This document shows, in pieces, positions 3,131-56,293 of a DNA stretch of 58,904 nucleotides; position 1 is the stretch's first letter, and each line of letters starts with the position of its first letter. Position numbers and translations under genes: made by a program. The notes under the pieces are model-generated. The model worked only from the letters and a program-made list of their open reading frames with translations. It was not told the origin of the DNA and ran no database searches. This DNA is from a virus. Lineage: Duplodnaviria; Caudoviricetes. The stretch covers positions 1 through 58,904 of IMG/VR virus record IMGVR_UViG_3300034056_000017; one strand, written 5' to 3'.

Positions 3131-4041
3131 TACAGGAAGTGCAGTATCAGTTCAGCCGTGACGTTGGTGCCGGCGGCAGCCGTGGTCAGGCAGTGTCCAA
3201 CTTCTTTGAAGTGCTCCGTGTCGGAATCAGATCTGAAGATGACCTGATCGACGTACAGCCGGTCTCCCGCCACACCTGCGTCAGCGCCGTAGAGCCGCAC
3301 GCGCATCTCTCCAGCGTTGATCATGTCGGCAGTGATCGCCGCACTGATCACAGTCACGTCGGTCGTCCCGGCTGCGGCCAAGGTGTCGATCAGCACCCAG
3401 CTCCCACCGCCTGCAACGTAGTCCCAGATGCTGATCGTCACACCGGCCGCGCGGTTGGCGCCGAAGTAGCCATTGAACCGGATCTCCGTCGGCGTCTCGG
3501 TCACCCCGGTGAAGATGACCCTGGCGTCGATGCTCGGCGCCCCTGTGGTCCCACCGATGGTCAGCTTCACCCCGTTGTTCAGGCGAGTGTCAGCGATCGT
3601 GCCGCTGATCGTCACACCGTTGGCGGTGTCGTAGGTGATCGATGTCGCCGGGAAGTCCAGGCCCGGCATGTCCTGCGTGATACACCTCCCGGCGGTCGTC
3701 GGTGACAGGCGCACCCAATCGTTCGGTGCTGCCGCGTAGCCGTCCTCCAGGATGAAGGTCGCCTTGCTCCCGGGAACAGTGGTGATCCACGTCGGGTGAC
3801 CGTCCGGCACGCCGTTCTCCGCAACGAAACCGGTAACCACATAGGGGTTCGTCGCGGCAATGAAGCCGCCATCCGATGCGGTGTCAATGTTGACAGCCGT
3901 GCCTTTCACCGACGGGGCTCCGGTCTTGTTGATCAACTGGATGCGCCCCCACGCCGGCAGGGCGTCGTCCTCGATGACGCCGTTGACGCGCAGGTTGAAG
4001 GTGCGATTGTCTTCTACACAGGTGACGTTCATGGGGTCCAT
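3130..4041 (-). CDS. Virion structural/fibre-associated protein
   Basis: 303 aa G/T/A-rich; coupled to neighbours in the tail cluster. Confidence 0.6.
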   Translation of the reverse strand: MDPMNVTCVEDNRTFNLRVNGVIEDDALPAWGRIQLINKTGAPSVKGTAVNIDTASDGGFIAATNPYVVTGFVAENGVPDGHPTWITTVPGSKATFILEDGYAAAPNDWVRLSPTTAGRCITQDMPGLDFPATSITYDTANGVTISGTIADTRLNNGVKLTIGGTTGAPSIDARVIFTGVTETPTEIRFNGYFGANRAAGVTISIWDYVAGGGSWVLIDTLAAAGTTDVTVISAAITADMINAGEMRVRLYGADAGVAGDRLYVDQVIFRSDSDTEHFKEVGHCLTTAAAGTNVTAELILHFL

Positions 4042-6377: not shown

Positions 6378-9300
6378 TCAAGGCAATGTGTCCAAGAACT
6401 CGCGGTAGATTACATCCTCTTCCGCTTCGATCGCCCTGATCTCCTTGCGCCGCTGGCTCATCGACTTGGTCGGGTCGTTGCGGATGGTATCGATCAGCTC
6501 ACGCAGCGCCGCGGCGCGCTTCGCCTCGGCCTCTGCGCTCTTGGAGATGTCGATCAGTTCACCGTGCTCGGCGTACAGCTCGTCGGCCACCTCGGTGGCG
6601 CCGCCCTTGTTGGCTGCGCGATACTGCGCCCGGTACTTCTTCGCCTCCGCCTTCGCTTCGTTGAACGCGCGCCGGCTGTCTTGCACCGTGTTCTCCCGAC
6701 GGATGATGTTGACCATCGGCACCTCGGCCTCGGTCACGCTGCCGTTCCACGCCGCGCCGCCATCCATACCGAGGGCGGGGATCGGCGGACCAGCGAAGCC
6801 GTAGACCTGGTCGAGGAACGTGTAGGCGCCACCCATCAGGCTGCGCGCGTAGTGCTTGATCGACTCGGGGGAGACGTCGACCGCACCCTCGTTGAACGGG
6901 CTGCCGCCGGTCGCCTCGTTCAGCCCGGTGGCCACCTTGTCGTACCAGGTGCCGCGGGTGTTGCGCCACATGTTCTGGCTGTCCGGGGTGTCCTCCCTGT
7001 ACTGAGTCGGCTGGATCTTACCGCCGAAGTTGTTCTGGTTGAGCGCCGGAGCCAGGGCGATGTTCAGCGCGGTCGGCAGCATGTTGAACCAGCCAAGGAT
7101 GTTGGCCTCCTCATTGATCGGGTTGCCCACCGGGGAGAAGGCGTCGACGAAGCTGGACGCCAGATTCCATCCGCTCTTCTGGTCGAACTTCCCGTTGACC
7201 GCGTCGTTGACCGCGTAGCCCAGACCGACGAAGAAGCTAAACTCGTAAGGCAGCGGCAGGGTGATCTGACCGCGCTCCTTGTTGGTCGGGTCGGGGAAGA
7301 TCAGGTTGCGGTCCTTGGTGCTGCGCGAGATGATCTCCCACTCGTCGTCATCGTCACCGAGGGCACGCACCAGCTGGGCCGACATGTAGCCGATGGCGGC
7401 CAGCGAGCCGACGGCGCCCCACACCTGCGCCTTGTGCTTGGCGCGGAACATGGCGTAGGAGGCGCGGGTCACGCCCTGGATCGCCGGGTTGAAGAACAGG
7501 TAGAGGGCGGACAGGTTGGCGCCCCACTCACCGCGCTTGTCGAAGTTGAGCGTCACGTTCTTGGCCGCAGCTGCCGACTCGGAACGGGACTTGCCCTCTT
7601 CCACCAGGGTACGGTAGGTGGCCAGCCGGTATGCGTTTTCCGACACGCTGTTCAGCGCCTCGACACTGTCGATGAACCAGCGCGCCGGGGAGTACTTGCC
7701 ACGCCGCGCAGCATTCAGCCCGGAGGCGGCCACGGCCTTGGTGTGAGCGTACATCGGTGACTTACCCTGACGCAGCAGATCGTCACGGGTGCGCTTGTAC
7801 TTCTCCTGCATCCCCATCTCGCGCTGGTACATGGTCGTCATCTTCTCACCGACCTGCTCCAGCGTGCCGAGCCAGGCGGCGCCGGTCGACCCGCCATCGT
7901 TGGTGTACTTGTCCACCCACGGGTCGCTGCGACGGTCGCCCGTGCGCAGGTACGTCAGCAGGCTCTTCACCGCCCTCGGGTAGTTGGCGAGGATCTTACC
8001 AGTCACCGTGATGCCGTAGTCCCCGGTGATGTTGATCGTGCCGGCCAGGGCATCGCGGATCGTGTTACGGATCGTGAATCGCGGATCGTACCCGGTGTAT
8101 GCGCGGGAGAGGAAGTTGTTGATCTGCTTGCCGACGTTCAGGACCGACGCCACCTTCTCGACGCCGACCGCAGTCAGGGAGCCGGCCAACACTTCGTCGT
8201 TGAGCTGGATGCGGACCTGCTTGCCGTTAACGTAGGCGTTGATCTCGTTGGGCTGCAGCATCGGGCTCGACATGAAGACGACCGTGGGGTCGGTGCTCTT
8301 AACGACCTTGTACTCGCTGAACGGCCGACCGCTGGTGGCCATGATCGACTGGATGTGCTGGTGAGCCTGAGTCTGCCCACTGACACCAGGGGAGTCGGGG
8401 AACGCGGCCAGAGGCGTGCCCTGGAAGTAGACCGTGTAGGTTGCGACGTTGCGCACCGAAGGGCGCTTCTGCGGCTTGCCGACGGTGCCCACTGCCGGGT
8501 TGTTGGTCTCGAGCAGCATCTGCGCCACGGAGAGGTTGACCTTGTTCTTCTCGACCGCCCGGTAGGCCATCTCGCGCATGTTGATGATGTTCTCGATTAC
8601 CATCTCGTCGCGCAGCCCGTGACCCATGCGGCGCTTCTGCCGGTTGTTAACCTTCTGCCCCTGGCCGGCGCCGCGGGAGATGGCCTCCTGGTCGCCACGC
8701 ACCGGGACGTAGTAGCCGTAGCTGGTGTCCCATGCGTCCTTGGTGTCCTGGTCGATGAGCCCCTCGCGCAGGAGCAGATCAGCGGTGCCCTTGGTGAACG
8801 CCTGCCACTGGTCCGAGATGCGCTTGAGATCCGTCGAGGCGCCGGAGAGGATGTCGCGTGCGTCGATCACATCGTAGCCGGCGGCCACCGCCGCAGCGAT
8901 CTCAGCGTCGGTGGTGGCGTAGCCGTAGGCCAGCTTGGTCGGGTCGCCGTGCAGCTTCTGTATGGCGGCGTTGGCCTCAGCAGCGTGGCGCGCGAGCAGG
9001 TAGTCGTTGATGTCGTCCAGGGGGATCTTCAGCTTGGCGGCTTCCATCACCAGGGGTGCCACGTCAGTCTCGACGAAGCGCACCAGGCGGTCGGCAACCT
9101 TGCCGTTCATGGTATAGAGCCCACGGGCAGCGTTGGCCAGCTCGGACAGCTGCGTGCCAGTCTCAGTGATCCACTCCTGCAGGGTGGCGACCCGGTTGTA
9201 GCGGTCCTGCACCTTGCGCAGGAACAGCTGCAGGTAGGTCTCCGTCGGCGTGCCATTGGCGTTGAGGCGGCGGGAGGAGTACTTCACAAACTCACCAGGC

Positions 9301-12300
9301 GTCTGCTCGGTGACCCCGATCATCGGCTGCGGCGGGACGACCTTCTCGTTCTGCTTGTTGGCAAAGGCGTCAGCAGCCTCCTGGGTCGGGAAGCGTGCGA
9401 CCGTCTTCGTCCCTTCTCCTTCATTCTTGAAGACAAGGTAGGAGCTGCCACCCTGTTGGGGGACGACGAAGTGATGCCCTTCTGCCTTGCTGTTGGGGAT
9501 GCCCGACATCACAGCGATCTGACCCTTGGCGTACTTGGCGAACATCTTCGGCAGCATGGAGTCGTAGAGGTTCTTGAGCCCTTCGCCACCGACCCTGAGC
9601 CCGTCTCCGGTGATCTCCTTGCCGCCTGACTTACCAAGGTCACGACCCTCGCCAGCGACGATGCTCTTGGCGATCTCCTTGCCGACGACGTCCGCCAGCT
9701 CGTTTGCGGTCAGCCCCTCCTTGGTGATGACCTCCTCGCCGTCCTTCACCGCAGACAGGTCGTAGGTGTCGCCCTTCTTGAAGTACTGGATCGCGTCGAT
9801 CTGCTGCGACAGGTCGTAGCGGTCGGCCTGCTGCTGGCCCGTGGTCCAGGCGACGGCATCGAAGCCCTGCTCCTTGGCAATGGCGATGACCCGTTTCACG
9901 CCGATATCGTAGATGCGCTTGCGCAGCCACTCCGGCATCTGCTCCTGGTTGGCGTCACTCGGCCCCTGCATCTCCTCAACGAAGAGGACGCGCTTGCCGT
10001 CCACCTGGCGCTCGTTGTAGCGGATGCGGACGATGGGGTTATTGATCTCGGAGTATTGGGAGTGACCGTCTTTCCAGTTACCAGTAGCCGGTTTCCAATC
10101 ATAACGACCTGCAATACTTATCACCGTGGTATCTGGCAGCGCGGTCAGAGTTTCTTCTGGGAAATATCCCTCCCCTAGCAAGAATGCTCGCGCTGCCTTT
10201 GCTTCCAGGTCAAAGGGCAGTTTGCTATATTCAGGCGCCGTGACGAAGAACTCCCGGTAGCTGCCCGCGACCGCGCCGGGGAGCGTGTACTGACCGAAGT
10301 GGGTGCGCCGTTCTGCTGTCGGCATCTGTGCGCCAGGCGGGAGGTAGTCGTTGAGATCATCACTGAGGCCGGACAGTTCATTATCATCCAGCACCACGTC
10401 CTCGAACTCGACGCTGTTCGCCTTGACGTGGTCGAGCAGCTCCTGCCTGGCGATCGTCCCGTCCAGCCCGGCGAGCACGTTGTCGATCTCCACCGGGGAG
10501 ACGCCGGCGTTGCGCAGCATGGCCTTGAGGTTGAGCAGCGATGTCTTACCCTGCACCTTCTGCTCGACGACGCGCTCGAGCTTGCTGAAGAAGGGAGTCA
10601 GGGTGCGCATGGAGTAGCGGATGTCGGGGTTCTTCGCGCTGAACTTTCCAGAGTTATGCGTGGCGCTCTTGATGTCCGTCTGGTTGAACGCGATGAAGAT
10701 GTCGGTCGGGTCGTAGACGTCCCCTTGTGACCCGCTGTCCGTCACGTTGCGGATGATGGCGCCGTCGTTACCGTACTTCTGACCTTCTCGGGCAACCATG
10801 TCGGTGGTCAACCCCACGTCGCCAGCCTCTTGCACGCTGGCACCAGGAGTGTTGTCAGCCAGTTCGTCGGCCTCATCCTTGGTCAGAACTCCGCGACCAT
10901 CATCGGCATAAACGGGGTCGCCGTCCTGGTCGACAACTTCCCACTGGTCATGCCGGGAGCCGTCCCAGTTGGCTCCTTCAAAGTCTTCTTCGTTCGGGTT
11001 GCGGATGTTGAGGAAGACCTCGTAGATGCCCCGCTGCCCCTCTTCGTCGAAGTCGCTGATCGACTCACCGCGACCGGAGTATGTGCGAGCTGTTGTGCGG
11101 TCAGGGGTGAAAAAGAACGCACCCTTGACCTTGCCGTCACGGCTGTCGAACTCCGTGAAGCCCCCGTCGGTCGTCCCATGATAGACCACCAGCGGCTCGC
11201 CGTTCTCGTCGACCACCTTGGAAACGGACTTCTCGGTGTCGGCCCAGACGCCGCCCTTCATGGTAGCGAACTTCTCCCAATCCCCAAACCATTTCTTGAA
11301 GGCCGGCGTGCGCACCATGGCGTGCTGCTCGGGGGAGAGGTTGGACGGCTTGCCGTTGGGGGCAAGAGGGCGGCTGCTGTACCGGACCCCCTCGCCCTCG
11401 CTGAAGTCTCCGTTGTTCTCGACCGACTTGATGTCCGCCGGATCCCAGATGGCGACGGCGTCTTCAAACTTCTGATCCCAGACACCGGACCAGCCTTCCG
11501 CCTTGGCCGCAGCCTCTGCGCCTTCCCAACCGTGCTTGCTGATGTACTCCGACCACTTGGTGTTGCCCATGTACTTGCCCCGGGCGTAGAGCGCCATGAC
11601 GATCTGGCCGCCTTTGCCGGCGCCATCGTACCCTTCAGCCACATCACGGTCGGGGGAGGTGTAGACCGCCGGTCCCATCGCGCCGATCTTGCTGCGGCGG
11701 AAGGCGTCGATCTTTTTGTCGGTGCCGTGGTAGAGCACCATCGGGGAGCCGTCCTCGTTGACGAGGTTGCTCTCCTTGGCGTTGAACCACGCTTTGAACT
11801 CGGGGGTGTTGGTCAGATCGCGGGAGGAATATTTTACAGGCTGTTGTACTTCTTGGCTTCCGGTGTCGGGTTCGCCCCGAAGAACTCCTCGAAGACTCTG
11901 TCCTCGATCTCCTGGGAAGTCTCGAAGGTAGACGCTTCCTTCAACAGGGACTGGCGTTTCTCCTCTTGCGATGTCGTTGTCGTACCAGGTTGCGGTTTCA
12001 TGGGAACCTCCTTTCGACACCAATGTAGCAAAGTTCTGTGCCGACTGCAAGCCAATTCGTATGATATTGTATGGCGGAACCAAACGCCCCGTGAGTTCGT
12101 GTCTGGTAACCGCGCGGTCGATGGCCTTCTCTGCCGGGAGGTCGACGTAGTGCAGATGCACCGTGTAGCCCTTCTCCTTGAGGAGATCGATGCGAGCCTG
12201 CAAGGAGGCGGGGTTATCTCCGACCATTGGGTAAACGATGTTGTCACCGTTGGTCAGGGCGCGCACCATCACGGACGCCGTGATCTTGGAACTCTCCTCA

Positions 12301-15300
12301 TGCACCGAGCTGGCGCCGAAGCCATTGCGGAAGCCCCACAGCTTCTCCTTGGCCGCGTCCGGGTCGATCAGCAGGGCACCGTGCTTCGCGACCAGGGGGT
12401 CGGCGACAGTGGACTTCCCCGATGCAGGCAGACCGAGAATCAGGTCAGCACGACGATCCTTATTCTTCGCCCCCTCACCGTAGAGAAGGGTCTTGATCCG
12501 GCCACGGTGCAGCCAGCGCAGCGGCGTGTCGATCAGGTGCGTCTTTGGGAGTTTCTCCGCTTCAGAGACCAGTTCGAGAATCTTGGTCGGGATTCGCGCC
12601 TCAAGCTCGGCATCGCTGAGGATGCGACTGCTCGCCTTCACGTCAGCGTTACGCAGGTCGCTCCCGGCCAGCGCCTCCTGTCCTGCGTTCGGATTGGCCT
12701 TGATCTCGTCGGCAACCTTCTTGACGAAGGCGGTGTCCGGCTTGATGTTGCGGCCACCGTTGGCGACGTACTCGTCAAGCTGGGCCTTCATCTCGTCCAT
12801 GTTGATCTGGGACGGATCGGCCACATCGAACGCGGTGTCGGTGCGCGCGTAGTCCTTGCGCAGCTTGGCGAAATTGGGGTTGATGTCCTTCCACTCGATC
12901 TTGCCCTTGACCATCTCCTGCCACTTGGTCTTGGCTTCCTTCGCGGACGTGATCCCCTTGAACATGAACTGCGGGAAGACCGGGAGGATGTTGCGCTCCT
13001 TGCACAGCTCGAGATACGCCCGGGTGGTCTGCTCCGTGGTCTTGCCCTTGTCCCCGGCGAACTCCTGCATGATCGTCTTGCGGTCGAGCTTCTTCTCATC
13101 CAGACTCTTCTCGTTCTGAGTCCCCGTCAAGTTCTTCCAGTTCAGCGCATCATTATAGAACACCTTCGGCATCCCTGACGCATGGAACGGGATGATGTAG
13201 TCGATCCACTCCTGCGCGAGCGCCCACTCGGTCATTGCGTCGGAGGTGGTGACCATGATCACGCCAGCGTTGGGGTGTTTGTCACGCAGATCCTGGGCTT
13301 CCTTCCAGTCCATCCCCATGTGCGCGTCCGCCTTGAACGTCCCGTCCTCTTGCTCGACGGCGAACACCGACATGTTGATCTTGATCCCGGTCTTGCCGAA
13401 GATCTTCACGAACGCTGGATGCTTGGTGTAGGCGTGGGTGCGCATCCCGACAGCATAGGTGTCGACGATCGCCTGCCACAGGTCGAACACATGCTCGATC
13501 TGGAAGTCAGATGTGGAGAAGATACGCAGTCCCGCCCGGCGATTGATCCAGTCGAGGAACGTGACCTTCTCCCCGTTCTCGCGGATCGTTGCTTCAGCCT
13601 GCTTGAGGATCTGGCCGGCGTAATCGGTGTACATCTTCACCGCGTTCTGTGAGGACGACGCCTGTGCCTTGTTGCGGGCCCAGGCGTAGATCTCGGGGAA
13701 CTTCTGTTCGTGCTTGGACTGTCCCTCATCCGTCAGGAACGGCATCAGATCGAACTCGGACGCCTTGAAGCCCTGCTCCCGCGCCTTCTCGATCATCGCC
13801 TTGTCAGCATCGTAGGTCCGACGCTTGGCAGCGACAGCAGCATCGAGCGACCCGTGAGCGGTGATCTCCTTCTTGGTCGGCTTGCCGGGCTGCTTCAGCT
13901 CAACCGTTCCTCCAAGAACCCCGGCGTACCGGGCAACCTCTGCCACGAATATACGGCGCGGAGACTCGACGTAGCAATAGACGCAGGGTGCCTCCTTACC
14001 GGCCTCCCGCATTCTGATCACCATGAGCATCGCATCACCTGCGGTCGGCGCGCGGTCAAGCACCCGGTACAGTTCGATGAGGTTGGCACCATACTCAAGC
14101 CGCTTGATGCAGGACGATGCGAGGTCCAGAGACTTGATGTAGAGCACAGTATCGTTGTTGTTGCGCAGCGGGTTGCCCTTCTTCCACTCGATGTTGTGCG
14201 GGAAGAGATCCTTGACGTTGTCGAGCAGCTCGGCCAGCGCCTTCATCTCGCGGACGTTGTCGACGATCTTCTTGCGGCGCGACTTCGGGACCGTCGGCAG
14301 AGTCTTGTCAAGCTCCGCCGACCACTCGTTTATCGTGCGTGCCGAGTAGACGACCGGCCCCGGTGAGACGATGCCGCTCTCGACGGCTGGTGACTCGGTC
14401 ACCCCTTGACGCTCCATGGCGTAGTCAGCAACCGCCTTGGCGAGGATGGCGCGGACCTTCCTGGCGTCGGTGACGAATGATGCACGATAGGCAAAATCAT
14501 CTGCATTGACGAACTTCGAAATCAGGGAGTCGATCCAGGCGACAATCTTCTGCGACAGGGACTGAAACTTGTCAGCACCCATGTTCGCTTCAACCTGGGT
14601 CCAGAAGTCGGCGTTGTCGAAGTTGTTGCCGAGGATGTCTGCGATCTGCTCCTCGATGTCACCGCCGACCCGAGACTGATACTCCTTGGAACGGAGCAAC
14701 GGCTTGAGTGCGGATTCGAGAGCCGAGTAGAGTTTGGGGTTGTCGTTCTTGAGGAGATGGAGGATTTCGTGACCGAAGACGACGTTGAACTTCACGTCGG
14801 TACGAACATCAATGAAGACGGTGTCACCCATCTTCAGGTAGACCAGACCGTTGTCGGTGATCTTACCCGCGGTGTCACCCTTGCGCTGAAGAGTGCCGAA
14901 GACTACCTTTTTCCCGAAGACCTTGCCGAGGAATCTTGCGAGGTCCATACTCGACCGCGTGCCAGAGCTGCGTACAGCATCGCCGCCTCGTCCGCTTCCT
15001 CGCGCGTCAGACTGCCCTCCTCGATCTGACGCAGTTGCATCGTCAGACAGACCCTGCTGAAGTGCGGCTCCTCCTTGTGCTCCAGCAGATGCCGGCGCCT
15101 GGCCTCCTTGTGCAGCAGCTTGTCCTTGTCCCTCGACGACAGATCCAGTTGCAGAATCTCTTGGTACAAGAGGGGTAAAGGTAATCCCCGTTGCCTTTTG
15201 GAGAGTGTCGGCAATGCCCCGGTTTGAATCATCGATCTGCCATTCTTTGTTGAGAAGGTCTTGTGTCTCATCATCAAGCATAGCACCTTTGTCGATCGGT

Positions 15301-17429
15301 GCAACCTTGGCCGAGTAGGCGACCGTCTGCTGCTTCTTGAGAGCCGTTCTGATCGCGGTGGCGGTCTTGGCATTCGGCACGCTGGTCGAGCCATCCTGTG
15401 CCACCAGGCTCAACTTGCCGGCGGCATCCTGCACGACAACCTGCCCGTCGAGACCAGGAACGGTGAAGGCGGTCCCACCGAGGGACTGCACGGTGGTCTG
15501 CTGCGGAGACGCTGCCGGCTCGAGCGGAGCCGGCGTCGTCCCTACTTCTTCTTGCCCCCGCCCTTGCACTTGCCCATTGACATCACCCCCTAGCCCTTCA
15601 TCTCCTTGCGGCTCCTGCCGCACGTCGGACACTTGCGCTTGTCCCGGCTGATCTGCTTCCCGCACTGGCACTTCATTGGTGGTCTGCTCCTTGGGTTGAA
15701 GGATGAAGCCGCCGTCAACGGCGACCACGTCGTGGCTATCCTGCAGGCGGCGGTAGGACCGCACCCGGGTGGCTGCCGCCTCGTCGGCGTAGATCTTCGG
15801 TTGCCCGGTGGCGGCATCCGTATTGTCGAACGTCGGAGCTGCAGCTGGCGCGGTGCTGGTCGCCGTGCCCCCGTAGACGCTCTCGATCAGCGACTCGTCG
15901 GTCAGCTGCGACACGTCATCGTTGGTCGTCTCGCTGGTGCCGTCGGGGAAGGTGAAGGTTGCGCCACCGTTCTCGTTGCGCGTCACGGTCACCGTGGCGC
16001 CATCGTTCACACCACCGGTGAGCGTGTAGCCAGGGTCAGCGACAGGCGACACGGGGGCGACAGTCGCTTCAGTGTCGCCTGTCGCCGGCAGGTCGACACC
16101 GAGGTTCTCGGCGGTCTGCTCGAACTCGTTGTAGGTGTCCTGGTTCCACTCGGAGGCCGCCGGCGTGCTCACGGCCTCGGCAGCCGCAGCGATGGCGTCG
16201 TCGACGCTGGTGGCCGCCGTGACGTCGGGCGGCGGGGTGACGGGAGCGGGGCCGGAAGGCGACCACCCGGGCACACCACGATACATCCGCTCCAGCGATC
16301 CGGCGGCGGACAGGTTCTCTTGAGTGTCGTCAAGAGTTTTCCGTGCGTCCGGCGACATTGCGTCATATTCCGCACGCCGGCGCCGGATCTCTTCGATCTG
16401 CTCAGGAGACTGCAGAATACCCCTGGCAGTCTCCATCGTTTTACCGGCAGCACCAAACATCCCGGTCTGCACAAGCGTCTGCAGAGCAGTCTCCCTGGCG
16501 TCCTTGCTGGCGTTGTAAGTGCGATCCCCGACCTTAATGTCGCTGGTGTCGAGCATGGTTCCAGACGCCCATGCGACAAGCGTCTCACCGGTGTACTGCA
16601 GCGCCTTGCTTGTACTATCGGGGTCATCCGATGTGATGATGTCCGCAACATTCTGGATGAGGGTCGTCGGAAGCTCGGTCATCTCCTCGACACCAAAGTA
16701 CTCGAAGGTCCGGCGCAGCACGCTCTTGGCGCTCTGACTGTTGAACAGGTCGAAGAACTTGGCAGCAGGGATCGTCTCAAACCCGGCCTCAGCAATGCCG
16801 GCGATCACACCCTCGACCGCAGCAGCACCCTTGCTCTTTCCTTCAATCGCCCTGGCTTCGCCGTAGGTGTCACCGGCCGTGCGCAGGCCCATCGACCCGA
16901 GCATGCCGACAGGACCGAGCGCCATCCCCGGTGCCATGAAACCGGTCGACTCGACGGCGCCAGAGACGAGCTTGCCGGTCTCGGACGTCAGTGGATACTG
17001 TGCATCAAGTGACTTGCGATCTTGCTCAAGTTTGCGCAGGTCTTGGATGGCACTCTCGGCATCGATCGGGACGACCGGACCTTCCGAGTTTTCTTTGACA
17101 TATCCCGGTGCGAACTCCGACGTCAGGAGGTTGAGAGACGCCTCGCTGCGCTCGAGCCCCTGCGTGAACTGTTCAGGAGCCCTGGCAATGATGTTGGGAA
17201 CATCCCGCAGGAAGTTCCCCTCCATCCGATCCTCCGGCGCAGCGATTCCCATGACGTCGCGCTGAGAGCCAGCGGTGCCGGGGTTCCACTCTGCATAGTT
17301 GTCGGGAAGATTCGGATCCTGTGGGTTCCACGACGCATCAAGCCCAACCGGCGCTTCCTCCTCTGCATCAAACTGATCAAAGAAGTTGGCGCCGGTTTGC
17401 TCGTCAAACTGGTCAAAGAAGTTGGCCAT
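6378..17429 (-). CDS. Giant polyvalent virion/ejection protein (3683 aa): HExxH metallopeptidase, Cys-rich unknown module, zeta-toxin-like P-loop kinase, two ART-PolyVal-like domains, LPD38-like C-terminus
   Basis: GHEILH at ~14755-14775; PCVYCYVES; GLPASGKS plus IDPDAAKEKL...HEESS at ~12290-12434; FKAWF...PMVLYHGT and FKKWFGDWE...PLVVYHGT; C-terminal NFDKRG...LYLFFNPAIQG...LPLPYEF; located after the ejection-protein genes. Confidence 0.9.
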   Translation of the reverse strand: MANFFDQFDEQTGANFFDQFDAEEEAPVGLDASWNPQDPNLPDNYAEWNPGTAGSQRDVMGIAAPEDRMEGNFLRDVPNIIARAPEQFTQGLERSEASLNLLTSEFAPGYVKENSEGPVVPIDAESAIQDLRKLEQDRKSLDAQYPLTSETGKLVSGAVESTGFMAPGMALGPVGMLGSMGLRTAGDTYGEARAIEGKSKGAAAVEGVIAGIAEAGFETIPAAKFFDLFNSQSAKSVLRRTFEYFGVEEMTELPTTLIQNVADIITSDDPDSTSKALQYTGETLVAWASGTMLDTSDIKVGDRTYNASKDARETALQTLVQTGMFGAAGKTMETARGILQSPEQIEEIRRRRAEYDAMSPDARKTLDDTQENLSAAGSLERMYRGVPGWSPSGPAPVTPPPDVTAATSVDDAIAAAAEAVSTPAASEWNQDTYNEFEQTAENLGVDLPATGDTEATVAPVSPVADPGYTLTGGVNDGATVTVTRNENGGATFTFPDGTSETTNDDVSQLTDESLIESVYGGTATSTAPAAAPTFDNTDAATGQPKIYADEAAATRVRSYRRLQDSHDVVAVDGGFILQPKEQTTNEVPVREADQPGQAQVSDVRQEPQGDEGLGGDVNGQVQGRGQEEVGTTPAPLEPAASPQQTTVQSLGGTAFTVPGLDGQVVVQDAAGKLSLVAQDGSTSVPNAKTATAIRTALKKQQTVAYSAKVAPIDKGAMLDDETQDLLNKEWQIDDSNRGIADTLQKATGITFTPLVPRDSATGSVVEGQGQAAAQGGQAPASAGAQGGAALQQGLSDDATASDRGGQSDARGSGRGGDAVRSSGTRSSMDLARFLGKVFGKKVVFGTLQRKGDTAGKITDNGLVYLKMGDTVFIDVRTDVKFNVVFGHEILHLLKNDNPKLYSALESALKPLLRSKEYQSRVGGDIEEQIADILGNNFDNADFWTQVEANMGADKFQSLSQKIVAWIDSLISKFVNADDFAYRASFVTDARKVRAILAKAVADYAMERQGVTESPAVESGIVSPGPVVYSARTINEWSAELDKTLPTVPKSRRKKIVDNVREMKALAELLDNVKDLFPHNIEWKKGNPLRNNNDTVLYIKSLDLASSCIKRLEYGANLIELYRVLDRAPTAGDAMLMVIRMREAGKEAPCVYCYVESPRRIFVAEVARYAGVLGGTVELKQPGKPTKKEITAHGSLDAAVAAKRRTYDADKAMIEKAREQGFKASEFDLMPFLTDEGQSKHEQKFPEIYAWARNKAQASSSQNAVKMYTDYAGQILKQAEATIRENGEKVTFLDWINRRAGLRIFSTSDFQIEHVFDLWQAIVDTYAVGMRTHAYTKHPAFVKIFGKTGIKINMSVFAVEQEDGTFKADAHMGMDWKEAQDLRDKHPNAGVIMVTTSDAMTEWALAQEWIDYIIPFHASGMPKVFYNDALNWKNLTGTQNEKSLDEKKLDRKTIMQEFAGDKGKTTEQTTRAYLELCKERNILPVFPQFMFKGITSAKEAKTKWQEMVKGKIEWKDINPNFAKLRKDYARTDTAFDVADPSQINMDEMKAQLDEYVANGGRNIKPDTAFVKKVADEIKANPNAGQEALAGSDLRNADVKASSRILSDAELEARIPTKILELVSEAEKLPKTHLIDTPLRWLHRGRIKTLLYGEGAKNKDRRADLILGLPASGKSTVADPLVAKHGALLIDPDAAKEKLWGFRNGFGASSVHEESSKITASVMVRALTNGDNIVYPMVGDNPASLQARIDLLKEKGYTVHLHYVDLPAEKAIDRAVTRHELTGRLVPPYNIIRIGLQSAQNFATLVSKGGSHETATWYDNDIARGETPVPVEGSVYLRDFPGDRGQSLRGVLRGEPDTGSQEVQQPVKYSSRDLTNTPEFKAWFNAKESNLVNEDGSPMVLYHGTDKKIDAFRRSKIGAMGPAVYTSPDRDVAEGYDGAGKGGQIVMALYARGKYMGNTKWSEYISKHGWEGAEAAAKAEGWSGVWDQKFEDAVAIWDPADIKSVENNGDFSEGEGVRYSSRPLAPNGKPSNLSPEQHAMVRTPAFKKWFGDWEKFATMKGGVWADTEKSVSKVVDENGEPLVVYHGTTDGGFTEFDSRDGKVKGAFFFTPDRTTARTYSGRGESISDFDEEGQRGIYEVFLNIRNPNEEDFEGANWDGSRHDQWEVVDQDGDPVYADDGRGVLTKDEADELADNTPGASVQEAGDVGLTTDMVAREGQKYGNDGAIIRNVTDSGSQGDVYDPTDIFIAFNQTDIKSATHNSGKFSAKNPDIRYSMRTLTPFFSKLERVVEQKVQGKTSLLNLKAMLRNAGVSPVEIDNVLAGLDGTIARQELLDHVKANSVEFEDVVLDDNELSGLSDDLNDYLPPGAQMPTAERRTHFGQYTLPGAVAGSYREFFVTAPEYSKLPFDLEAKAARAFLLGEGYFPEETLTALPDTTVISIAGRYDWKPATGNWKDGHSQYSEINNPIVRIRYNERQVDGKRVLFVEEMQGPSDANQEQMPEWLRKRIYDIGVKRVIAIAKEQGFDAVAWTTGQQQADRYDLSQQIDAIQYFKKGDTYDLSAVKDGEEVITKEGLTANELADVVGKEIAKSIVAGEGRDLGKSGGKEITGDGLRVGGEGLKNLYDSMLPKMFAKYAKGQIAVMSGIPNSKAEGHHFVVPQQGGSSYLVFKNEGEGTKTVARFPTQEAADAFANKQNEKVVPPQPMIGVTEQTPGEFVKYSSRRLNANGTPTETYLQLFLRKVQDRYNRVATLQEWITETGTQLSELANAARGLYTMNGKVADRLVRFVETDVAPLVMEAAKLKIPLDDINDYLLARHAAEANAAIQKLHGDPTKLAYGYATTDAEIAAAVAAGYDVIDARDILSGASTDLKRISDQWQAFTKGTADLLLREGLIDQDTKDAWDTSYGYYVPVRGDQEAISRGAGQGQKVNNRQKRRMGHGLRDEMVIENIINMREMAYRAVEKNKVNLSVAQMLLETNNPAVGTVGKPQKRPSVRNVATYTVYFQGTPLAAFPDSPGVSGQTQAHQHIQSIMATSGRPFSEYKVVKSTDPTVVFMSSPMLQPNEINAYVNGKQVRIQLNDEVLAGSLTAVGVEKVASVLNVGKQINNFLSRAYTGYDPRFTIRNTIRDALAGTINITGDYGITVTGKILANYPRAVKSLLTYLRTGDRRSDPWVDKYTNDGGSTGAAWLGTLEQVGEKMTTMYQREMGMQEKYKRTRDDLLRQGKSPMYAHTKAVAASGLNAARRGKYSPARWFIDSVEALNSVSENAYRLATYRTLVEEGKSRSESAAAAKNVTLNFDKRGEWGANLSALYLFFNPAIQGVTRASYAMFRAKHKAQVWGAVGSLAAIGYMSAQLVRALGDDDDEWEIISRSTKDRNLIFPDPTNKERGQITLPLPYEFSFFVGLGYAVNDAVNGKFDQKSGWNLASSFVDAFSPVGNPINEEANILGWFNMLPTALNIALAPALNQNNFGGKIQPTQYREDTPDSQNMWRNTRGTWYDKVATGLNEATGGSPFNEGAVDVSPESIKHYARSLMGGAYTFLDQVYGFAGPPIPALGMDGGAAWNGSVTEAEVPMVNIIRRENTVQDSRRAFNEAKAEAKKYRAQYRAANKGGATEVADELYAEHGELIDISKSAEAEAKRAAALRELIDTIRNDPTKSMSQRRKEIRAIEAEEDVIYREFLDTLP
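11834..12001 (-). CDS. Nested +1-frame ORF (55 aa) right after the zeta-toxin-like domain; candidate antitoxin
   Basis: AAAGGAGG 5 nt before ATG 12001; MKPQPGTTTTSQEEKRQSLLKEASTFETSQEIEDRVFEEFFGANPTPEAKKYNSL; stop lies in the PVKYSSR linker codons. Confidence 0.65.
   Translation of the reverse strand: MKPQPGTTTTSQEEKRQSLLKEASTFETSQEIEDRVFEEFFGANPTPEAKKYNSL
14903..15274 (-). CDS. Nested +1-frame ORF (~109-123 aa, helical) just upstream of the HExxH domain
   Basis: Alt frame reads like a globular helical protein (LLYQEILQLDLSSRDKDKLLHKEARRRHLLEH...LTREEADEAAMLYAALARG) while the host frame is G/Q/A/S low-complexity; AAAGGTG 9 nt before ATG 15274; alternative ATG at 15232. Confidence 0.55.
   Translation of the reverse strand: MMRHKTFSTKNGRSMIQTGALPTLSKRQRGLPLPLLYQEILQLDLSSRDKDKLLHKEARRRHLLEHKEEPHFSRVCLTMQLRQIEEGSLTREEADEAAMLYAALARGRVWTSQDSSARSSGKR
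15542..15577 (-). CDS. Nested +1-frame basic micro-peptide MGKCKGGGKKK
   Basis: Follows the nested Zn-ribbon ORF; GGGGGTG RBS-like sequence upstream. Confidence 0.35.
   Translation of the reverse strand: MGKCKGGGKKK
15590..15676 (-). CDS. Nested +1-frame 28-aa Zn-ribbon peptide MKCQCGKQISRDKRKCPTCGRSRKEMKG
   Basis: AAGGAG 10 nt before ATG; CxC-x10-CxxC. Confidence 0.55.
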   Translation of the reverse strand: MKCQCGKQISRDKRKCPTCGRSRKEMKG

Positions 17430-23614: not shown

Positions 23615-24303
23615 ATCATGCTGCTCCCACGCTGGACAGGCGGCGTATGTTCGAACAACATCCTGGTGAGGAACTTACTGTAGCCGGACTTGCCGATCTC
23701 GATCTGCTCCTGCGCGACTTCGAAGAGCCCGTACTTGACCATGGCCCCGTAGACGACGACCAGGTGATGCTTGCTCGGGAAGATCGGCTCGTCGGCGTCA
23801 GCACTCAGCTCATGCGGCGAGCGGAAGTATTCGGCCACGATGGTGTAGTCGTCGTTGGGGATCGGCCAGAACATGAGCGCCTTGTCGGCCGGGCGGATGG
23901 TCATGTAGAGAGGCCGCCCCTGCACCGAGCGTTGCGTGCTGTACAGGTAGCGGTCCCGGAAGTCAGAGTAATCCATATACTGCGGCAGCATGATCTCGTT
24001 GCCGACGCCAGCCGAGGTCAGGTAGCCGCGGAACGAGTCGAACCGCCAGTTGCCGAAGTCGGAAACATCGATGTCCAGCCCGGTGCCTACCGTGTAGGCT
24101 TGCTGGGCTGCGACCGTGCTGAAGGTCTTGTCCTTCCGCATGAAGTCCCAGTCGTGGCGCTCGAGCTGGACATCGACGTAAGCCTGTGCGATCCAGTCCT
24201 TCAGACGCTTCTGTTCCTTGACCAGTCCGACGACAGTCGTAATGTCGGCACCAGAGATGCCGCATTCTTGCTTCAGTCGGTTAACCAACTGCAGAAACGT
24301 CAT
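23611..24303 (-). CDS. Head-tail adaptor (tail tubular A-like)
   Basis: Start MTFLQLVNRL at 24303; WDFMR and FWPIPNDDYTI...DEPIFP motifs. Confidence 0.75.
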   Translation of the reverse strand: MTFLQLVNRLKQECGISGADITTVVGLVKEQKRLKDWIAQAYVDVQLERHDWDFMRKDKTFSTVAAQQAYTVGTGLDIDVSDFGNWRFDSFRGYLTSAGVGNEIMLPQYMDYSDFRDRYLYSTQRSVQGRPLYMTIRPADKALMFWPIPNDDYTIVAEYFRSPHELSADADEPIFPSKHHLVVVYGAMVKYGLFEVAQEQIEIGKSGYSKFLTRMLFEHTPPVQRGSSMI

Positions 24304-25022
24304 GATGTGACTCCTCGCTTTTTCAAACCAAGCGCCTCTTCCAATGACCAACCGCGCGACAGTCTCCAAGATAGTGTTACTTTGTTGACCCCGTACTTTT
24401 CAGCCAATTGCGTCTGGTTCATTACAACACCATCAAACGTGAGAAGGTTCTGGACAGATCGTGCTTTATGTGACATTGGCACGTCCCGGTAAATTCGCTG
24501 CCTCACAATATCTTCTGTCAAACTGTACTTCACAGCAAGCTCTTTTACAGATAGACCTTCCAGCACCATCGTACAACGTTTGTTATCGTTTTGCCTGCTC
24601 TTCGGTAACCATGTACAGTTCTCTTTCGAGTAGCCACCGTTGACGTCCAACCGCTCAATCGTCATGCCCTCATCTGGTTCCCCCATGTCCTCATAAAACA
24701 ATGTGACGTCGTGCCACCTGTCACAAACTTTTATGCCCCGCCCTCCGTAATGATGATAGTTCCTGTCCCTCGGATTCCCGCACCTAGACATCATGTTGCG
24801 CCAAACTCCGTAACATCTAAGATGCGAAATGCTGTGAGTTCTTGCACCAATTCTGACACATCCGCAAGAGTGCTGCCTTTTTACATTCGCCCCGTTTATG
24901 ACAGTCATTCTTCCACATTCACACAAACAGCGCCAGCAAGCTCTCCCGCGAATGTCACTTCCCGCTCGTTCAACGATTGTGAGCATCCCGTAAACCTGAC
25001 CGATGAGATCTGAGGTAGCCAT
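24300..25022 (-). CDS. Free-standing HNH-type homing endonuclease
   Basis: DLIGQVYGMLTIV...WRCLCECG, YGGRGIKVCDRW, TIERLDVNGGYSKENCTW, C-terminal HTH repeats; lower GC; AAGGAG RBS. Confidence 0.85.
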   Translation of the reverse strand: MATSDLIGQVYGMLTIVERAGSDIRGRACWRCLCECGRMTVINGANVKRQHSCGCVRIGARTHSISHLRCYGVWRNMMSRCGNPRDRNYHHYGGRGIKVCDRWHDVTLFYEDMGEPDEGMTIERLDVNGGYSKENCTWLPKSRQNDNKRCTMVLEGLSVKELAVKYSLTEDIVRQRIYRDVPMSHKARSVQNLLTFDGVVMNQTQLAEKYGVNKVTLSWRLSRGWSLEEALGLKKRGVTS

Positions 25023-25051
25023 GGTGCGTCTCCTTTTATTGGAATTGCACC

Positions 25052-25080
25052 ATTGTATCGTATCTGTAACGGTCAGTCCA
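25052..25080 (-). promoter_or_regulatory. Candidate sigma70 promoter for the HNH gene
   Basis: TGGACT-N17-TACAAT on the minus strand. Confidence 0.5.
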
Positions 25081-25081
25081 C

Positions 25082-53771: not shown

Positions 53772-53961
53772 CTTCGTCCCTATCGAGGAGTACGCCACAG
53801 TCGGACTGCTGACCGGCGAGATCGGTCGTATTGAGTCATACAGCATCTACGCGGTACAACTTCGACCGCGCCCTCGCAGCAAGAAGCGGCGCATCCAGAA
53901 GAAGTGGCTGAAAGATCCATGGCCGAAGGGCTCGCGGGTGAGATATGTTACAACCCGCTGA
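53755..53961 (+). CDS. Hypothetical basic protein
   Basis: RPRSKKRRIQKKWLK motif. Confidence 0.45.
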   Translation: MLSLPSFVPIEEYATVGLLTGEIGRIESYSIYAVQLRPRPRSKKRRIQKKWLKDPWPKGSRVRYVTTR

Positions 53962-56293
53962 CCTTCACGAGTATCAAAAAAAAGCGATACTTCATCAGCT
54001 TTATAGTCCTGATTCAATGTTACAATTGAAACCAGGATTAGGGAAAAGTTGTATCACCCTGACCTCGATCGCCCACCGCATGGCTGCCGGCCAGATCAAG
54101 AAGACTCTGGTGGTCGGTCCCCTGCGTGTCATCCACGGCGTCTGGCGCAGGGAGGCGAGGAAGTGGTCGCACCTGCAGCACCTGCGCTTCACCGTGCTGC
54201 ACGGCGACAAGCGCACCCGCCTCGAGCGCCTGATCAACAACGGCTTTGATATCGCCCTGATCAACTACGAGAACCTCTCCTGGTTGGCCGACGAGCTGAA
54301 GGCGCGCTACCTGGACCGCGGTCACCCACTGCCGTTCGACATGGTGGTCTACGACGAGGTCACCCGGATGAAGAACTCGACGTCCAAGCGCGGGGCTGCC
54401 TGGCGCAAGCTGACGCCGCACTTCAAGTTCCGCACCGGGCTCACCGGGACGCCGGCCGCCAACGGCTACATCGACCTGCACGGTCAGTACCTGGTGGTCG
54501 ACGGCGGCCAGCGCCTCGGCACCCACGTCACGCACTTCCGGGACGCCTACTTCGAGTCCGACTACATGGGCTGGAGCTATGCCCCCACCGAGCTGGGTAA
54601 GCGCGCCATCGAGCAGAAGATCTCCGACATCACCATCAGCATGGACGCCAAGGATCTGCTGAAGATGCCGGAGCTGCAGTTCCACGACATCATGGTCGAC
54701 CTGCCGCCTGCGGTGATGACCCGCTACCGCGAGGTCGAGGACGACATGTTCACCCGGTTGGACTGCGGCACCGAGATCGAGGTGTTCAACCAGGCCAGCG
54801 TGTCGAACAAGTGCCTGCAGATGGCCAACGGTGCAGCCTACCTGCAGCCTGGCTGTCCTGAGTGGGCGCACGTCCACGACGAGAAGCTCGAGGCGCTGGA
54901 CAGTCTGATCGAAGAGTCGGCCGGCAACCCGATCCTGCTCGGGTATCAGTTCAAATCCGACGCACAGCGAATCATGGAGCGGTACAAGCGGTTGAAGCCG
55001 GTGAACCTGACCGAGGTCAAGGGTAAGCAGATCGAGACCGTCATCAACAACTGGCAGGCTGGGAAGATCCCGCTGATGATCGGGCATCCGGCGTGTCTTG
55101 GTCCCGACACGGAAGTGTTGACAGAATGTCGAGGATGGGTGAATATCGTTGACGTGGTATCAACGGACAGGGTGTTCGATGGTGTTGATTTCGTGAACCA
55201 CGGTGGCGCCATGTACTCGGGGTTCAAACCGACCATCGATGTTCTCGGTATCACAATGACACCAGACCACAAACTGTGGATCAACGGAGAATGGGTGGAG
55301 GGAAAAGATGTTCGAGATTCTTTGCATATTAGGTGCGAAGCCGCGCGGCTCAAAAGGGAAATTGATAACCGTCTGCTTGGCGAAGTGTCTCACATGCGGG
55401 GAAGTGTCGGAGATGTTTCGACAGAACGCAGTGAAGAGCAACCGGAAGAATCAATCACACTGCAAGCACTGCATCAGGCAGACGTATCACAACATGACAA
55501 ACACCCGTATATACGGGATATGGCGCGGTCTCAAGTGCAGAGTGAAAGACCTGACGGATCGAAATTATGGGGCACGGGGGATCGGTGTCTGCGAGCGGTG
55601 GGGCAGCTTTCGGAACTTCTACGAGGACATGTCGCCAAGTTACTCGGACGACCTGACAATCGAGCGCATCGATGTGAACGGCCCTTACTCGAGAGAGAAC
55701 TGCCGGTGGGCAACCAACATGGAGCAACAGTCGAACAAGCGCAACAACAGGGTGCTGGTCTATTGCGGGGAGGAGATGCACCTCGCGGAACTGTGTCGTC
55801 GATCGGGCGTCAGCAAGATGATGATGTTGATGCGATTGAACAGAGGGATGACAGCAGAACAGGCGGTAGAGGATGCGAAGACCTCCCCTTACGGCAAGAG
55901 TCAACGCACGGTGAATATCCGTCGACGCGAAAGGCGCATGTCTACGACATCGTCGACTGTGGTCCAAGACACCGGTTCGTCGTAAGAAATGATGCGGGTG
56001 AGGTGTTCATTTCGCACAATTCTATGGGCCACGGCATCGATGGTCTGCAGGATACCGGCGGAACGCTGGTCTGGTTCGGCCTGCCCTGGAGCCTCGAGCT
56101 GTACGATCAGATGATTTGCCGGCTGTACCGGCAGGGCGGCATGAACAAGGTCATCGTCTACCGGCTGATGGCTCGCGACACACTGGACTTGGCGGTGGCG
56201 GACGCGCTCGCTAGGAAGGACTCAACGCAAGAAGGTCTGAAGGTTGCCATTAACAATTACAGGAGGCGTCATGGGCTGGAGCACCAGTGCTGA
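53945..56293 (+). CDS. SNF2-family helicase, intein-containing (473 aa after splicing)
   Basis: PGLGKS, VVYDE, GLTGTP; spliced motif HPA|SMGHGIDGLQ; QMICRLYRQG. Confidence 0.92.
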   Translation: MLQPADLHEYQKKAILHQLYSPDSMLQLKPGLGKSCITLTSIAHRMAAGQIKKTLVVGPLRVIHGVWRREARKWSHLQHLRFTVLHGDKRTRLERLINNGFDIALINYENLSWLADELKARYLDRGHPLPFDMVVYDEVTRMKNSTSKRGAAWRKLTPHFKFRTGLTGTPAANGYIDLHGQYLVVDGGQRLGTHVTHFRDAYFESDYMGWSYAPTELGKRAIEQKISDITISMDAKDLLKMPELQFHDIMVDLPPAVMTRYREVEDDMFTRLDCGTEIEVFNQASVSNKCLQMANGAAYLQPGCPEWAHVHDEKLEALDSLIEESAGNPILLGYQFKSDAQRIMERYKRLKPVNLTEVKGKQIETVINNWQAGKIPLMIGHPACLGPDTEVLTECRGWVNIVDVVSTDRVFDGVDFVNHGGAMYSGFKPTIDVLGITMTPDHKLWINGEWVEGKDVRDSLHIRCEAARLKREIDNRLLGEVSHMRGSVGDVSTERSEEQPEESITLQALHQADVSQHDKHPYIRDMARSQVQSERPDGSKLWGTGDRCLRAVGQLSELLRGHVAKLLGRPDNRAHRCERPLLERELPVGNQHGATVEQAQQQGAGLLRGGDAPRGTVSSIGRQQDDDVDAIEQRDDSRTGGRGCEDLPLRQESTHGEYPSTRKAHVYDIVDCGPRHRFVVRNDAGEVFISHNSMGHGIDGLQDTGGTLVWFGLPWSLELYDQMICRLYRQGGMNKVIVYRLMARDTLDLAVADALARKDSTQEGLKVAINNYRRRHGLEHQC
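55094..56020 (+). mobile_element. Intein (309 aa) inserted in SNF2 motif V
   Basis: N-term CLGPDTEVLT, block B MTPDHKL, block F VYDIV, C-term ISHN followed by Ser+1. Confidence 0.93.
55308..55985 (+). CDS. HNH-type homing endonuclease encoded in the +1 frame inside the intein
   Basis: GGAGG 6 nt before ATG; CLTCG, CKHC, YGARGIGVCERW, TIERIDVNGPYSRENCRWA, C-terminal HTH; same family as 24300..25022. Confidence 0.88.
   Translation: MFEILCILGAKPRGSKGKLITVCLAKCLTCGEVSEMFRQNAVKSNRKNQSHCKHCIRQTYHNMTNTRIYGIWRGLKCRVKDLTDRNYGARGIGVCERWGSFRNFYEDMSPSYSDDLTIERIDVNGPYSRENCRWATNMEQQSNKRNNRVLVYCGEEMHLAELCRRSGVSKMMMLMRLNRGMTAEQAVEDAKTSPYGKSQRTVNIRRRERRMSTTSSTVVQDTGSS

Follow-up and report, generated by a model that had tools for sequence, protein, structure and literature searches.

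Within the genome of a tailed phage (Duplodnaviria; Caudoviricetes), IMG/VR virus record IMGVR_UViG_3300034056_000017, a giant minus-strand gene contains a stretch of DNA, at about 15170-14960, that appears to have been shaped as protein-coding in the +1 frame instead of the frame of the giant gene itself. The record was analysed as a whole (58,904 bases, rated 100% complete; hereafter the window), and our preferred, still tentative, reading is that a small gene was overprinted here by the giant polyvalent open reading frame (ORF) and is probably still functional. Ribosomes on the giant gene would read the -1 shadow frame of this small gene. As each shadow codon would begin with the small gene's GC-rich third base, that frame would rarely meet a stop and would yield a product rich in Gly, Ala, Gln, Ser and Arg. 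The outcome would be a 76-residue disordered spacer between a conserved VAPIDK...FTPL segment and a module with an HExxH motif, and the small gene (88-123 codons, four predicted helices) would most likely still be translated alone from an internal start, the best candidate being ATG 15274/15271 behind AAAGGTG. The features on which this argument rests are as follows (window coordinates; aa, amino acids; nt, nucleotides).

6378..17429, minus strand: host gene, a single ORF of 3683 aa encoding a polyvalent virion-type protein
14903..15394 (stop included), minus strand: +1 ORF, 163 aa from its first ATG, wholly inside the host gene
14963..15160, minus strand: +1 coding core, 66 codons, EILQLDLSSRDKDK...EAAMLYAAL, the maximal-scoring +1 segment here (18.7 bits)
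14940..15167, minus strand: host-frame spacer, residues 755-830, 76 aa, between the FTPL and ARFLGK anchors
15171..15305, minus strand: upstream part of the anomalous block, host residues 709-753, VAPIDKGAML...ITFTPL, which holds the candidate +1 starts
15284..15290, minus strand: weak Shine-Dalgarno-like AAAGGTG, 9 nt upstream of ATG 15274
15070..15119, no strand assigned: direct repeat of 17 nt, two copies 33 nt apart
14757..14771, minus strand: HExxH (HEILH) motif, residues 887-891

Codon usage in the two reading frames

Each reading frame was scored by codon log-likelihoods, tabulated from the remainder of the giant gene. Across this gene, GC content at codon positions 1/2/3 is 0.62/0.43/0.80, and in 40-codon windows over its 3683 codons the GC content at third positions (GC3) averages 0.80 (standard deviation 0.13). 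The minimum of the whole gene, 0.225, falls at codon 751, in line with the original prediction, made from the letters of this DNA, that the region departs from the high-GC3 pattern of the host gene. Codons 751-790 show GC values of 0.82/0.68/0.23 at positions 1/2/3, and the core shows 0.83/0.69/0.33 at host codon positions. Within host residues 748-838, codons that are otherwise rare become common, namely GGA for Gly (10/18, or 56%, vs 7% in the rest of the gene), CGA for Arg (3/7, 43% vs 3%), TCT for Ser (6/11, 55% vs 7%) and GTA for Val (2/5, 40% vs 2%), and GCA rises to 7 of the 15 Ala codons (47% vs 13%).

From ~15180 to 14960 the host-frame score goes negative and the +1-frame score positive. 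Over codons 754-823 the host log-likelihood ratio (LLR) is -0.73 per codon and the +1 LLR +0.24 per codon, for a gene average of about +0.49 (19.4 bits per 40 codons). Codon bias that stayed with the host frame had been named in advance as speaking against a nested gene; it clearly does not stay there and moves instead to the +1 frame. Such a switch is rare within the gene: the maximal +1 segments reach 24.9 bits at 11965-11837 and 18.7 bits at 15160-14963, followed by a next best of 8.7, so that just two +1 segments exceed 9 bits, and the best +2 segment scores 4.4 bits. The +1 frame is thus, as had been proposed, unlike the shadow ORFs found elsewhere in the gene, with a single other segment of comparable strength.

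Two null models were used to ask how much of this signal the host frame imposes. With the host protein fixed and each codon drawn from rest-of-gene usage (Null B), the observed +1 score was reached in 0/2000 draws for codons 750-838 and in 0/3000 for codons 754-823. Permuting the region's own codons among identical amino acids (Null A) leaves the arrangement alone to be tested, and yielded p = 0.0165 for the a-priori range 750-838, p = 0.010-0.011 (z = 2.3) for 754-823, and p = 0.00125 for a segment chosen post hoc. When Null A was calibrated on 69 ordinary 67-codon segments, 5.8% returned p < 0.05 and the highest z was 2.62. The +1 coding statistics exceed what the host frame imposes; most of the signal comes from host codons that end in A/T and start with G/C, and its arrangement-specific part is real but modest. 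The antisense frame opposite the +1 codons (14987-15130) was also considered as the coding frame and set aside, since its 10.5 bits lie below the 18.7 bits of the +1 frame and represent the usual mirror of an open sense frame.

By the codon-usage criterion described by Pavesi, Magiorkinis and Karlin (2013; PMC3744397), under which the frame nearer to genomic codon usage is the ancestral one, the +1 frame is ancestral, and the spacer came later by overprinting. In the host frame, the spacer (VPRDSATGSVVEGQGQAAAQGGQAPASAGAQGG...RGSGRGGDAVRSSGTRSSMDL) is rich in Gly, Ala, Ser and Gln (G16 A14 S11 Q8) and predicted to be coil, with a predicted local distance difference test score (pLDDT) of 25-30 in the host-frame model. 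The low complexity expected of the host frame in this region is therefore present over 76 aa, but it begins 48 residues after the TVAYSAK linker, not directly behind it as had been claimed.

The +1 frame is open for 168 codons from stop to stop. Besides the first ATG, in-frame ATGs at 15274, 15271 and 15232 yield proteins of 123, 122 and 109 aa, which accords with the size of ~109-123 aa first proposed for the nested gene, and a TTG at 15169, for a protein of 88 aa, borders on the coding signal. The likelier starts are ATG 15274/15271 or ATG 15232, over the first ATG. Duplex energies with the anti-Shine-Dalgarno sequence are -6.2 for 15274/15271, -2.6 for 15232 and -5.5 for 15169; the value of -6.2 is close to the median (-6.3) of 28 long-ORF starts and typical of the genes of this phage, and the AAAGGTG upstream of it is, in the host frame, a rare Lys codon AAA followed by GGT. 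Which of these codons serves as the start, and that a +1 protein is made at all, is what we infer from these sequence features. The HExxH motif (14757-14771) follows 44 codons after the +1 stop at 14903-14905, again consistent with the expectation that the nested gene would end shortly before the GHEILH domain.

In our reading, the +1 ORF has three parts. Its N-terminal 20-35 residues overlap the conserved host segment and show poor codon usage in both frames; a core of 66-70 codons follows, in which the +1 frame would dictate the sequence and the host frame would be its shadow; and a tail of 20 Arg/Ser/Gly-rich residues coincides with the beginning of the HExxH module, and there the host frame would be back in control. 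The 17-nt direct repeat reads LLHKE and LEHKE in the +1 frame, and AAQGG and GAQGG in the host frame.

A nested HNH gene and two sister reading frames

A parallel supported by homology occurs in the same genome, within an intein of a helicase gene.

53945..56293, plus strand: helicase gene, SNF2-type, carrying an intein
55308..55985, plus strand: nested +1 ORF in the helicase intein, an HNH endonuclease (PHROG 3377, E = 1.7e-44; PHROG 374, E = 2.9e-39)

The intein extends from CLGPDTEV..., preceded by ...GHPA, to ...FISHN, followed by SMGHG.... Its middle is low-complexity in the host frame (Arg/Gly/Gln/Asp-rich), and the same DNA in the +1 frame is a complete ORF of 225 aa. Judged by these family matches, the helicase intein is proof that this phage has a long ORF running through a real gene in its shadow frame. 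The helicase host frame stays open over 225 codons, which did not happen in that frame in any of the 703 windows of 225 codons sampled from ordinary genes. For the shorter distance required in the giant gene, the -1 shadow of ordinary genes of this phage is free of stops for 76 codons in 18% of the 1042 windows sampled, so that it would be an easy evolutionary step for an ORF to cross a small gene and join up with the next ORF.

Two 70-codon pieces of the nested HNH gene provide a yardstick for the spacer core. Their GC values at positions 1/2/3 are 0.84/0.50/0.41 and 0.74/0.50/0.40 (0.83/0.69/0.33 in the core), their host LLRs per codon -1.09 and -0.69 (-0.73 in the core), their +1 LLRs per codon +0.19 and -0.06 (+0.24 in the core), and their Null A z values 1.3 and 1.1 (2.3 in the core). 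By these measures, the giant-gene core resembles a +1 gene at least as much as the proven HNH gene does. Inteins whose homing endonuclease lies in a separate reading frame or strand have been described (bioRxiv 10.1101/2025.01.02.630785), and the in-frame reading of such stretches is reported there to fold into nothing recognisable. As described in that preprint, the out-of-frame architecture involves other endonuclease types, and here it involves HNH. The giant-gene region is like these inteins in holding a gene nested out of frame, with the same codon signature as the phage's own HNH intein. It is unlike them in that theirs, as that preprint presents them, contain a recognisable mobile endonuclease and the read-through is spliced out, whereas the +1 peptide here has no family and its spacer is known from sequence alone. 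Among the interpretations offered at the outset, a captured gene read through as a linker hence fits best, the +1 frame being genome-like by codon usage, the host frame resembling a -1 shadow, and a homology-proven parallel being present in the same genome.

Two further +1 ORFs were found within low-complexity stretches of the giant gene.

11834-12001, minus strand: second +1 ORF (P0010), 55 aa, acidic, MKPQPGTTTTSQEEKRQ...KKYNSL
15590-15676, minus strand: third +1 mini-ORF (P0011), 28 aa, CxC...CPxC, MKCQCGKQISRDKRKCPTCGRSRKEMKG

Of all +1 coding segments in the giant gene, the strongest (the 24.9 bits mentioned above) lies in P0010. This ORF starts at ATG 12001, 5 nt behind AAAGGAGGT, with a duplex energy of -12.8 (no more than 3.2% of all ATGs reach -10), follows directly on the Zeta_toxin match of the host protein, and its TAA end falls on the VKYSSR boundary. 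No homologue, family or ESM Atlas match was found for it, the homologue search returning no candidate. P0011 starts at ATG 15676 behind AAGGAG (duplex -7.7), in a host stretch that is Gln/Gly/Glu-rich and uses CAA for 6/8 Gln and GAA for 5/6 Glu, and has sub-threshold zinc-ribbon matches (Zn_Ribbon_1, E = 7e-4, 19.7 bits vs a cutoff of 25). Both start exactly at a Shine-Dalgarno sequence plus ATG and end at the edge of their own anomalous block, and they support read-through of small genes as a pattern in this giant gene.

A more general model, which we consider speculative and rather improbable in its full form, is that giant polyvalent virion genes grow by reading through small resident genes that stay alive. 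This gene would then contain three live +1 genes (one for a helical protein of ~120 aa at 15274-14903, one for an acidic protein of 55 aa at 12001-11834, and one for a 28-aa zinc ribbon at 15676-15590), whose products would be made separately from the giant protein and work together with the adjacent module, for instance keeping the HExxH peptidase or Zeta-like kinase restrained up to delivery. A spacer would be born in the same event that retains the small gene, and genes of this sort would consistently escape annotation.

Age of the spacer and competing explanations

The sole close relative of the giant protein among proteins of 2025-6446 aa is P0003 (3084 aa, from Logan assemblies), which is known as a protein sequence alone and is identical at 138/315 residues (44%); five other relatives share the HExxH domain alone, at 28-31%. 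The host frame of 15171..15305 is conserved with P0003, which carries a spacer of 74 aa between the same anchors, compared to 76 aa here, and just after the spacer the host-frame sequence ARFLGKVFGKK is conserved in five homologues. The two spacers align better than composition-preserving shuffles (2000 each; Smith-Waterman local p = 0.001, global p = 0.003). Since a homologous spacer lies between the same anchors at 44% identity, the read-through predates the divergence from P0003, and the arrangement is thus old, older than a divergence at which silent sites are saturated. GC3 is still far below ~0.8 after that divergence, hence the +1 codon bias is probably under ongoing constraint, most plausibly through selection on a +1 protein. 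The amino acids of P0003 are themselves powerless as a measure of +1 conservation, because the second codon position of the +1 frame is the free third position of the host frame.

Loci of relatives were sought in IMG/VR, JGI metagenomes and GTDB genomes with the +1 peptide, the HExxH module, a two-sequence alignment, the Zeta-ART region and the degenerate pattern RTDVKFNxVFGHE, and these scans returned one distant locus (L002, a 903-aa gene, 31% over 49 residues), which does not share the spacer and was rejected. Among shorter protein fragments of residues 690-900, 0/4637 candidates scored, and tblastn of the module against phages gave no match.

Any explanation has to accommodate the established observations, namely the switch of codon bias between frames, its rarity in the gene, its likeness to the proven nested gene and the age of the read-through. 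Several other results weigh against a living small gene. Searches with the +1 peptide by tblastn in phages and plasmids and by a scan of IMG/VR gave no match, and phmmer against 1.84 billion representatives gave one match, P0009 (E = 1.6e-10), which was rejected as spurious, its 13-fold tandem repeats producing an E-value summed from weak repeat matches, leaving no real homologue; such a lack of homologues had been listed beforehand as an argument against the gene. No family of Pfam or PHROG matches the peptide at E <= 1. Its ESM Atlas recognition value is 1752, when 2300 is reached by 91/100 proteins of known families, and the Atlas held no usable match for it or for P0010. The AlphaFold2 single-sequence model consists of four helices at a low mean pLDDT of 56.5. 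The peptide contains 35% charged residues, and its helical hydrophobic moment is 0.44, compared to 0.63 +/- 0.12 under synonymous codon permutation (P(>=obs) = 0.96), so that the amphipathic helical protein of the original prediction did not withstand the analysis. Of the six features described there, this amphipathicity is the one that failed; the remaining five are confirmed in place and beyond chance.

The sequence context adds to these points. There is no strong +1 start signal, a duplex energy of -6 being reached by 23% of all 1691 ATGs, and a promoter scan of 14700-15700 returned 0 promoter-like sites. Openness of the +1 frame over the anomalous region is not significant (P(no stop) = 0.24 under the codon-permutation null). 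The low-GC3 block starts at 15305, directly after TVAYSAK and ~45 codons upstream of the +1 signal, and its part from 15305 to 15171 has a GC3 of 0.49 (expected 0.83 +/- 0.05) with no +1 coding signal (LLR -48.7, permutation p = 0.51). Finally, false positives of Null A at p < 0.02 amount to 4.3% (3/69 control segments), and this phage has other low-GC3 blocks that lack a +1 ORF (two tail-fibre-like genes, a free-standing HNH gene and giant-gene codons 2397-2467), so that a nested gene is not required by low GC3 alone.

Two alternatives, which we regard as equally probable and each as distinctly less so than a functional overprinted gene, draw on these results. In the first, a small gene or piece of one that once coded in the +1 frame was swallowed by the giant ORF and lost its own translation, the codon bias being a fossil. 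A dead relic of this kind accounts for the same compositional data and fits the weak start, the lack of homologues, the low Atlas recognition and the shadow-like character of the N-terminal 35 and C-terminal 20 residues of the +1 ORF. However, P0003 shares the spacer at ~44% flanking identity, a distance at which neutral third positions should be back at GC3 ~0.8 instead of the 0.33 observed, and the +1 frame is still open over its 168 codons.

In the second, there never was a +1 gene. The segment 15305-14961 would be foreign or atypical DNA with A/T-ending codons (derived from a donor of lower GC3, or representing a cluster of rare codons that causes pausing), and a spacer rich in Gly, Ala, Gln, Arg and Asp would make the +1 frame mimic the S-W-S (strong-weak-strong base) codon pattern of the genome. 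That low GC3 begins ~45 codons before any +1 signal, that several other low-GC3 blocks of the phage lack a +1 ORF and that the +1 peptide has no amphipathic pattern are all as such a by-product would have it. So is the expectation, from the region's own codon counts, of a +1 score of ~0 and not ~-43, which makes most of the signal compositional and leaves an arrangement-specific remainder of z ~2.3, in a test where 3/69 control segments fall at p < 0.02. Yet the Pro/Ala/Thr-rich linker of the same protein (codons 481-560), likewise low-complexity, holds GC3 at 0.80-0.93, and the other low-GC3 blocks show ordinary GC1/GC2 (GC at first and second codon positions) and many +1 stops. The signature also equals that of the homology-proven nested HNH gene in strength, the two sister +1 ORFs start exactly at a Shine-Dalgarno sequence plus ATG and stop at block edges, and the spacer is conserved with P0003 in sequence, beyond composition.

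A programmed +1 frameshift by a fraction of the ribosomes near CCC-CTC-TTG-TAC / CTT-GTA (~15175), giving a truncated product with ~750 N-terminal aa and an 88-aa helical tail that ends at TAG 14903, appears very unlikely. It would explain why the +1 signal starts beside a Leu codon that precedes GTA, a very rare codon (2% of Val codons outside anomalous regions), and why the +1 frame lacks a strong independent start; no established slippery motif or stimulator was identified, however, and the sister +1 ORFs, with Shine-Dalgarno sequences and ATGs of their own, favour internal initiation as the general mode. A sequencing or assembly error, in which two compensating indels hide an in-line module, could pass unnoticed given that the shadow frame is open over 76 codons in 18% of windows, but can practically be dismissed, since an independent Logan contig (run X1) matches 13556-15392 with no difference and no gap, the host-frame spacer recurs in P0003, which stems from a separate phage, and ARFLGKVFGKK after it is conserved in the host frame in five homologues.

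The stretch is present in two sediment-metagenome runs, and no RNA run is listed for it. Among the variants listed, none falls inside 14889-15350, where the depth of run X2 is below 1. Further upstream in the giant gene, one X1 contig carries a 24-base in-frame insertion behind 16254, with ~21 substitutions nearby; this insertion is strain-level length variation in the N-terminal low-complexity part of the giant protein.

If the overprinted small gene is functional, its position alone prompts the guess of a role connected with the polyvalent protein. The +1 peptide has neither homologue nor family, and adjacency is therefore all that connects it with the HExxH module; the inhibitor or chaperone of the peptidase suggested at the outset finds no support in the analysis. 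The module, for its part, would qualify as a peptidase by its invariant HExxH and downstream Glu alone, following the motif as described in PMC5512222; residues H207, E208, H211 and E246/E247 of the module are invariant in a five-sequence alignment. It has no Pfam family at E <= 1. Its model has a mean pLDDT of 46.8 (70-85 in the domain part), and a structure search with this model gave unrelated generic helical proteins (best Z 7.0). Co-folding of the 88-aa +1 peptide with the module (score 0.00, mark 0.32) speaks neither way. We also considered whether the peptide is an out-of-frame copy of a module that is in frame in P0003-P0008, which was rejected by sequence comparison (best E = 0.16 with BLASTP and 0.029 with phmmer, both to P0007, neither beside the peptidase module).

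The giant polyvalent protein and known parallels

Same-strand embedded genes are familiar from phages, such as lambda Rz1 inside Rz (+1 frame) and, in phiX174, E inside D and B inside A; the embedded frame of the lambda and phiX174 pairs is usually taken as the newcomer, and both products are known experimentally. A same-strand nested phage gene is thus a known arrangement. The present case is like these pairs in that a complete small ORF lies within a larger same-strand ORF, one base out of frame, in a tailed-phage genome, but differs in that the embedded frame is genome-like and the enclosing frame looks like the newcomer, and in that this pair is known from its sequence. It also resembles the overprinting pairs of PMC3744397, as they are described there, with two frames on the same DNA of which the genome-like one is ancestral and the other encodes a low-complexity or disordered product. 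Unlike the classical overprinting set out in that article, in which a new small protein arises in an old gene, a new spacer of a giant fusion protein would here have arisen over an old small gene. In a limited full-text search, no published account was found of this variant, in which the older frame is that of a gene nested beneath a spacer within a giant polyvalent gene.

The giant protein of 3683 aa matches Zeta_toxin at residues 1659-1805 (E = 2.8e-14), ART-PolyVal at 2074-2263 (E = 1.7e-30) and LPD38 at 3361-3544 (E = 8.3e-23) in Pfam, and is thereby polyvalent in the sense of Iyer et al. (2017; PMC5512222), combining many unrelated effector-type domains, including family-specific ones. 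With these ART-PolyVal, LPD38 and Zeta-toxin-like domains and its HExxH module, it is like the polyvalent proteins of phages and conjugative elements described there, among which the zincin-like metallopeptidase is reported as the commonest domain and autoproteolytic processing is proposed. In the main text of that article, the words 'linker', 'frameshift' and 'low-complexity' occur 0 times each, and genes nested in spacers are not discussed. By PHROG annotation, the giant gene is flanked by a tail-protein gene on one side and by head, portal and capsid genes on the other. A YS-x-[RK] motif (recurrent form [VI]-x-YS-x-[RK]) occurs at residues 705, 1028, 1867, 2017, 2272 and 2717 and seems to mark module boundaries of the giant protein; the motif is also found in P0003, at 1490, 1633 and 2012. 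The [VI]-x-YS-x-[RK] form may serve the HExxH module as a site of processing.

If the +1 gene is real, the annotation of giant phage genes would hide small proteins that are absent from gene callers and protein databases, and the lack of a detected homologue would follow from this absence. It would also provide a concrete assembly route for multi-module polyvalent proteins in GC-rich phages, in which an ORF crosses a small neighbour and fuses with the next gene, and the shadow translation serves as a ready-made Gly/Ala-rich disordered spacer. The usual direction of overprinting would then be reversed, an old small gene lying under a new piece of a big one. Should the +1 ORF instead be a relic or merely a product of composition, it would caution that plots of GC3 by frame are not sufficient by themselves to call nested genes in low-complexity spacers.

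Two further compositional anomalies were observed in the window. In the ART region, at 10824-11060, a codon-for-codon antisense frame beats the host frame (32.8 bits over 69 codons), and the best frame at 10831-10981 is '+2'; this region also has strain variants, and a contig of run X1 skips 209 bases there (11034 to 11244). Three whole minus-strand genes (2-1255, 1811-3130 and 24300-25115) have a GC3 of ~0.46-0.51, vs 0.7-0.9 in the rest of the genome, and look like recently acquired DNA; the pair at the left end is tail-fibre-like, and 24300-25115 encodes a free-standing HNH endonuclease (PHROG 374, E = 3.4e-55).

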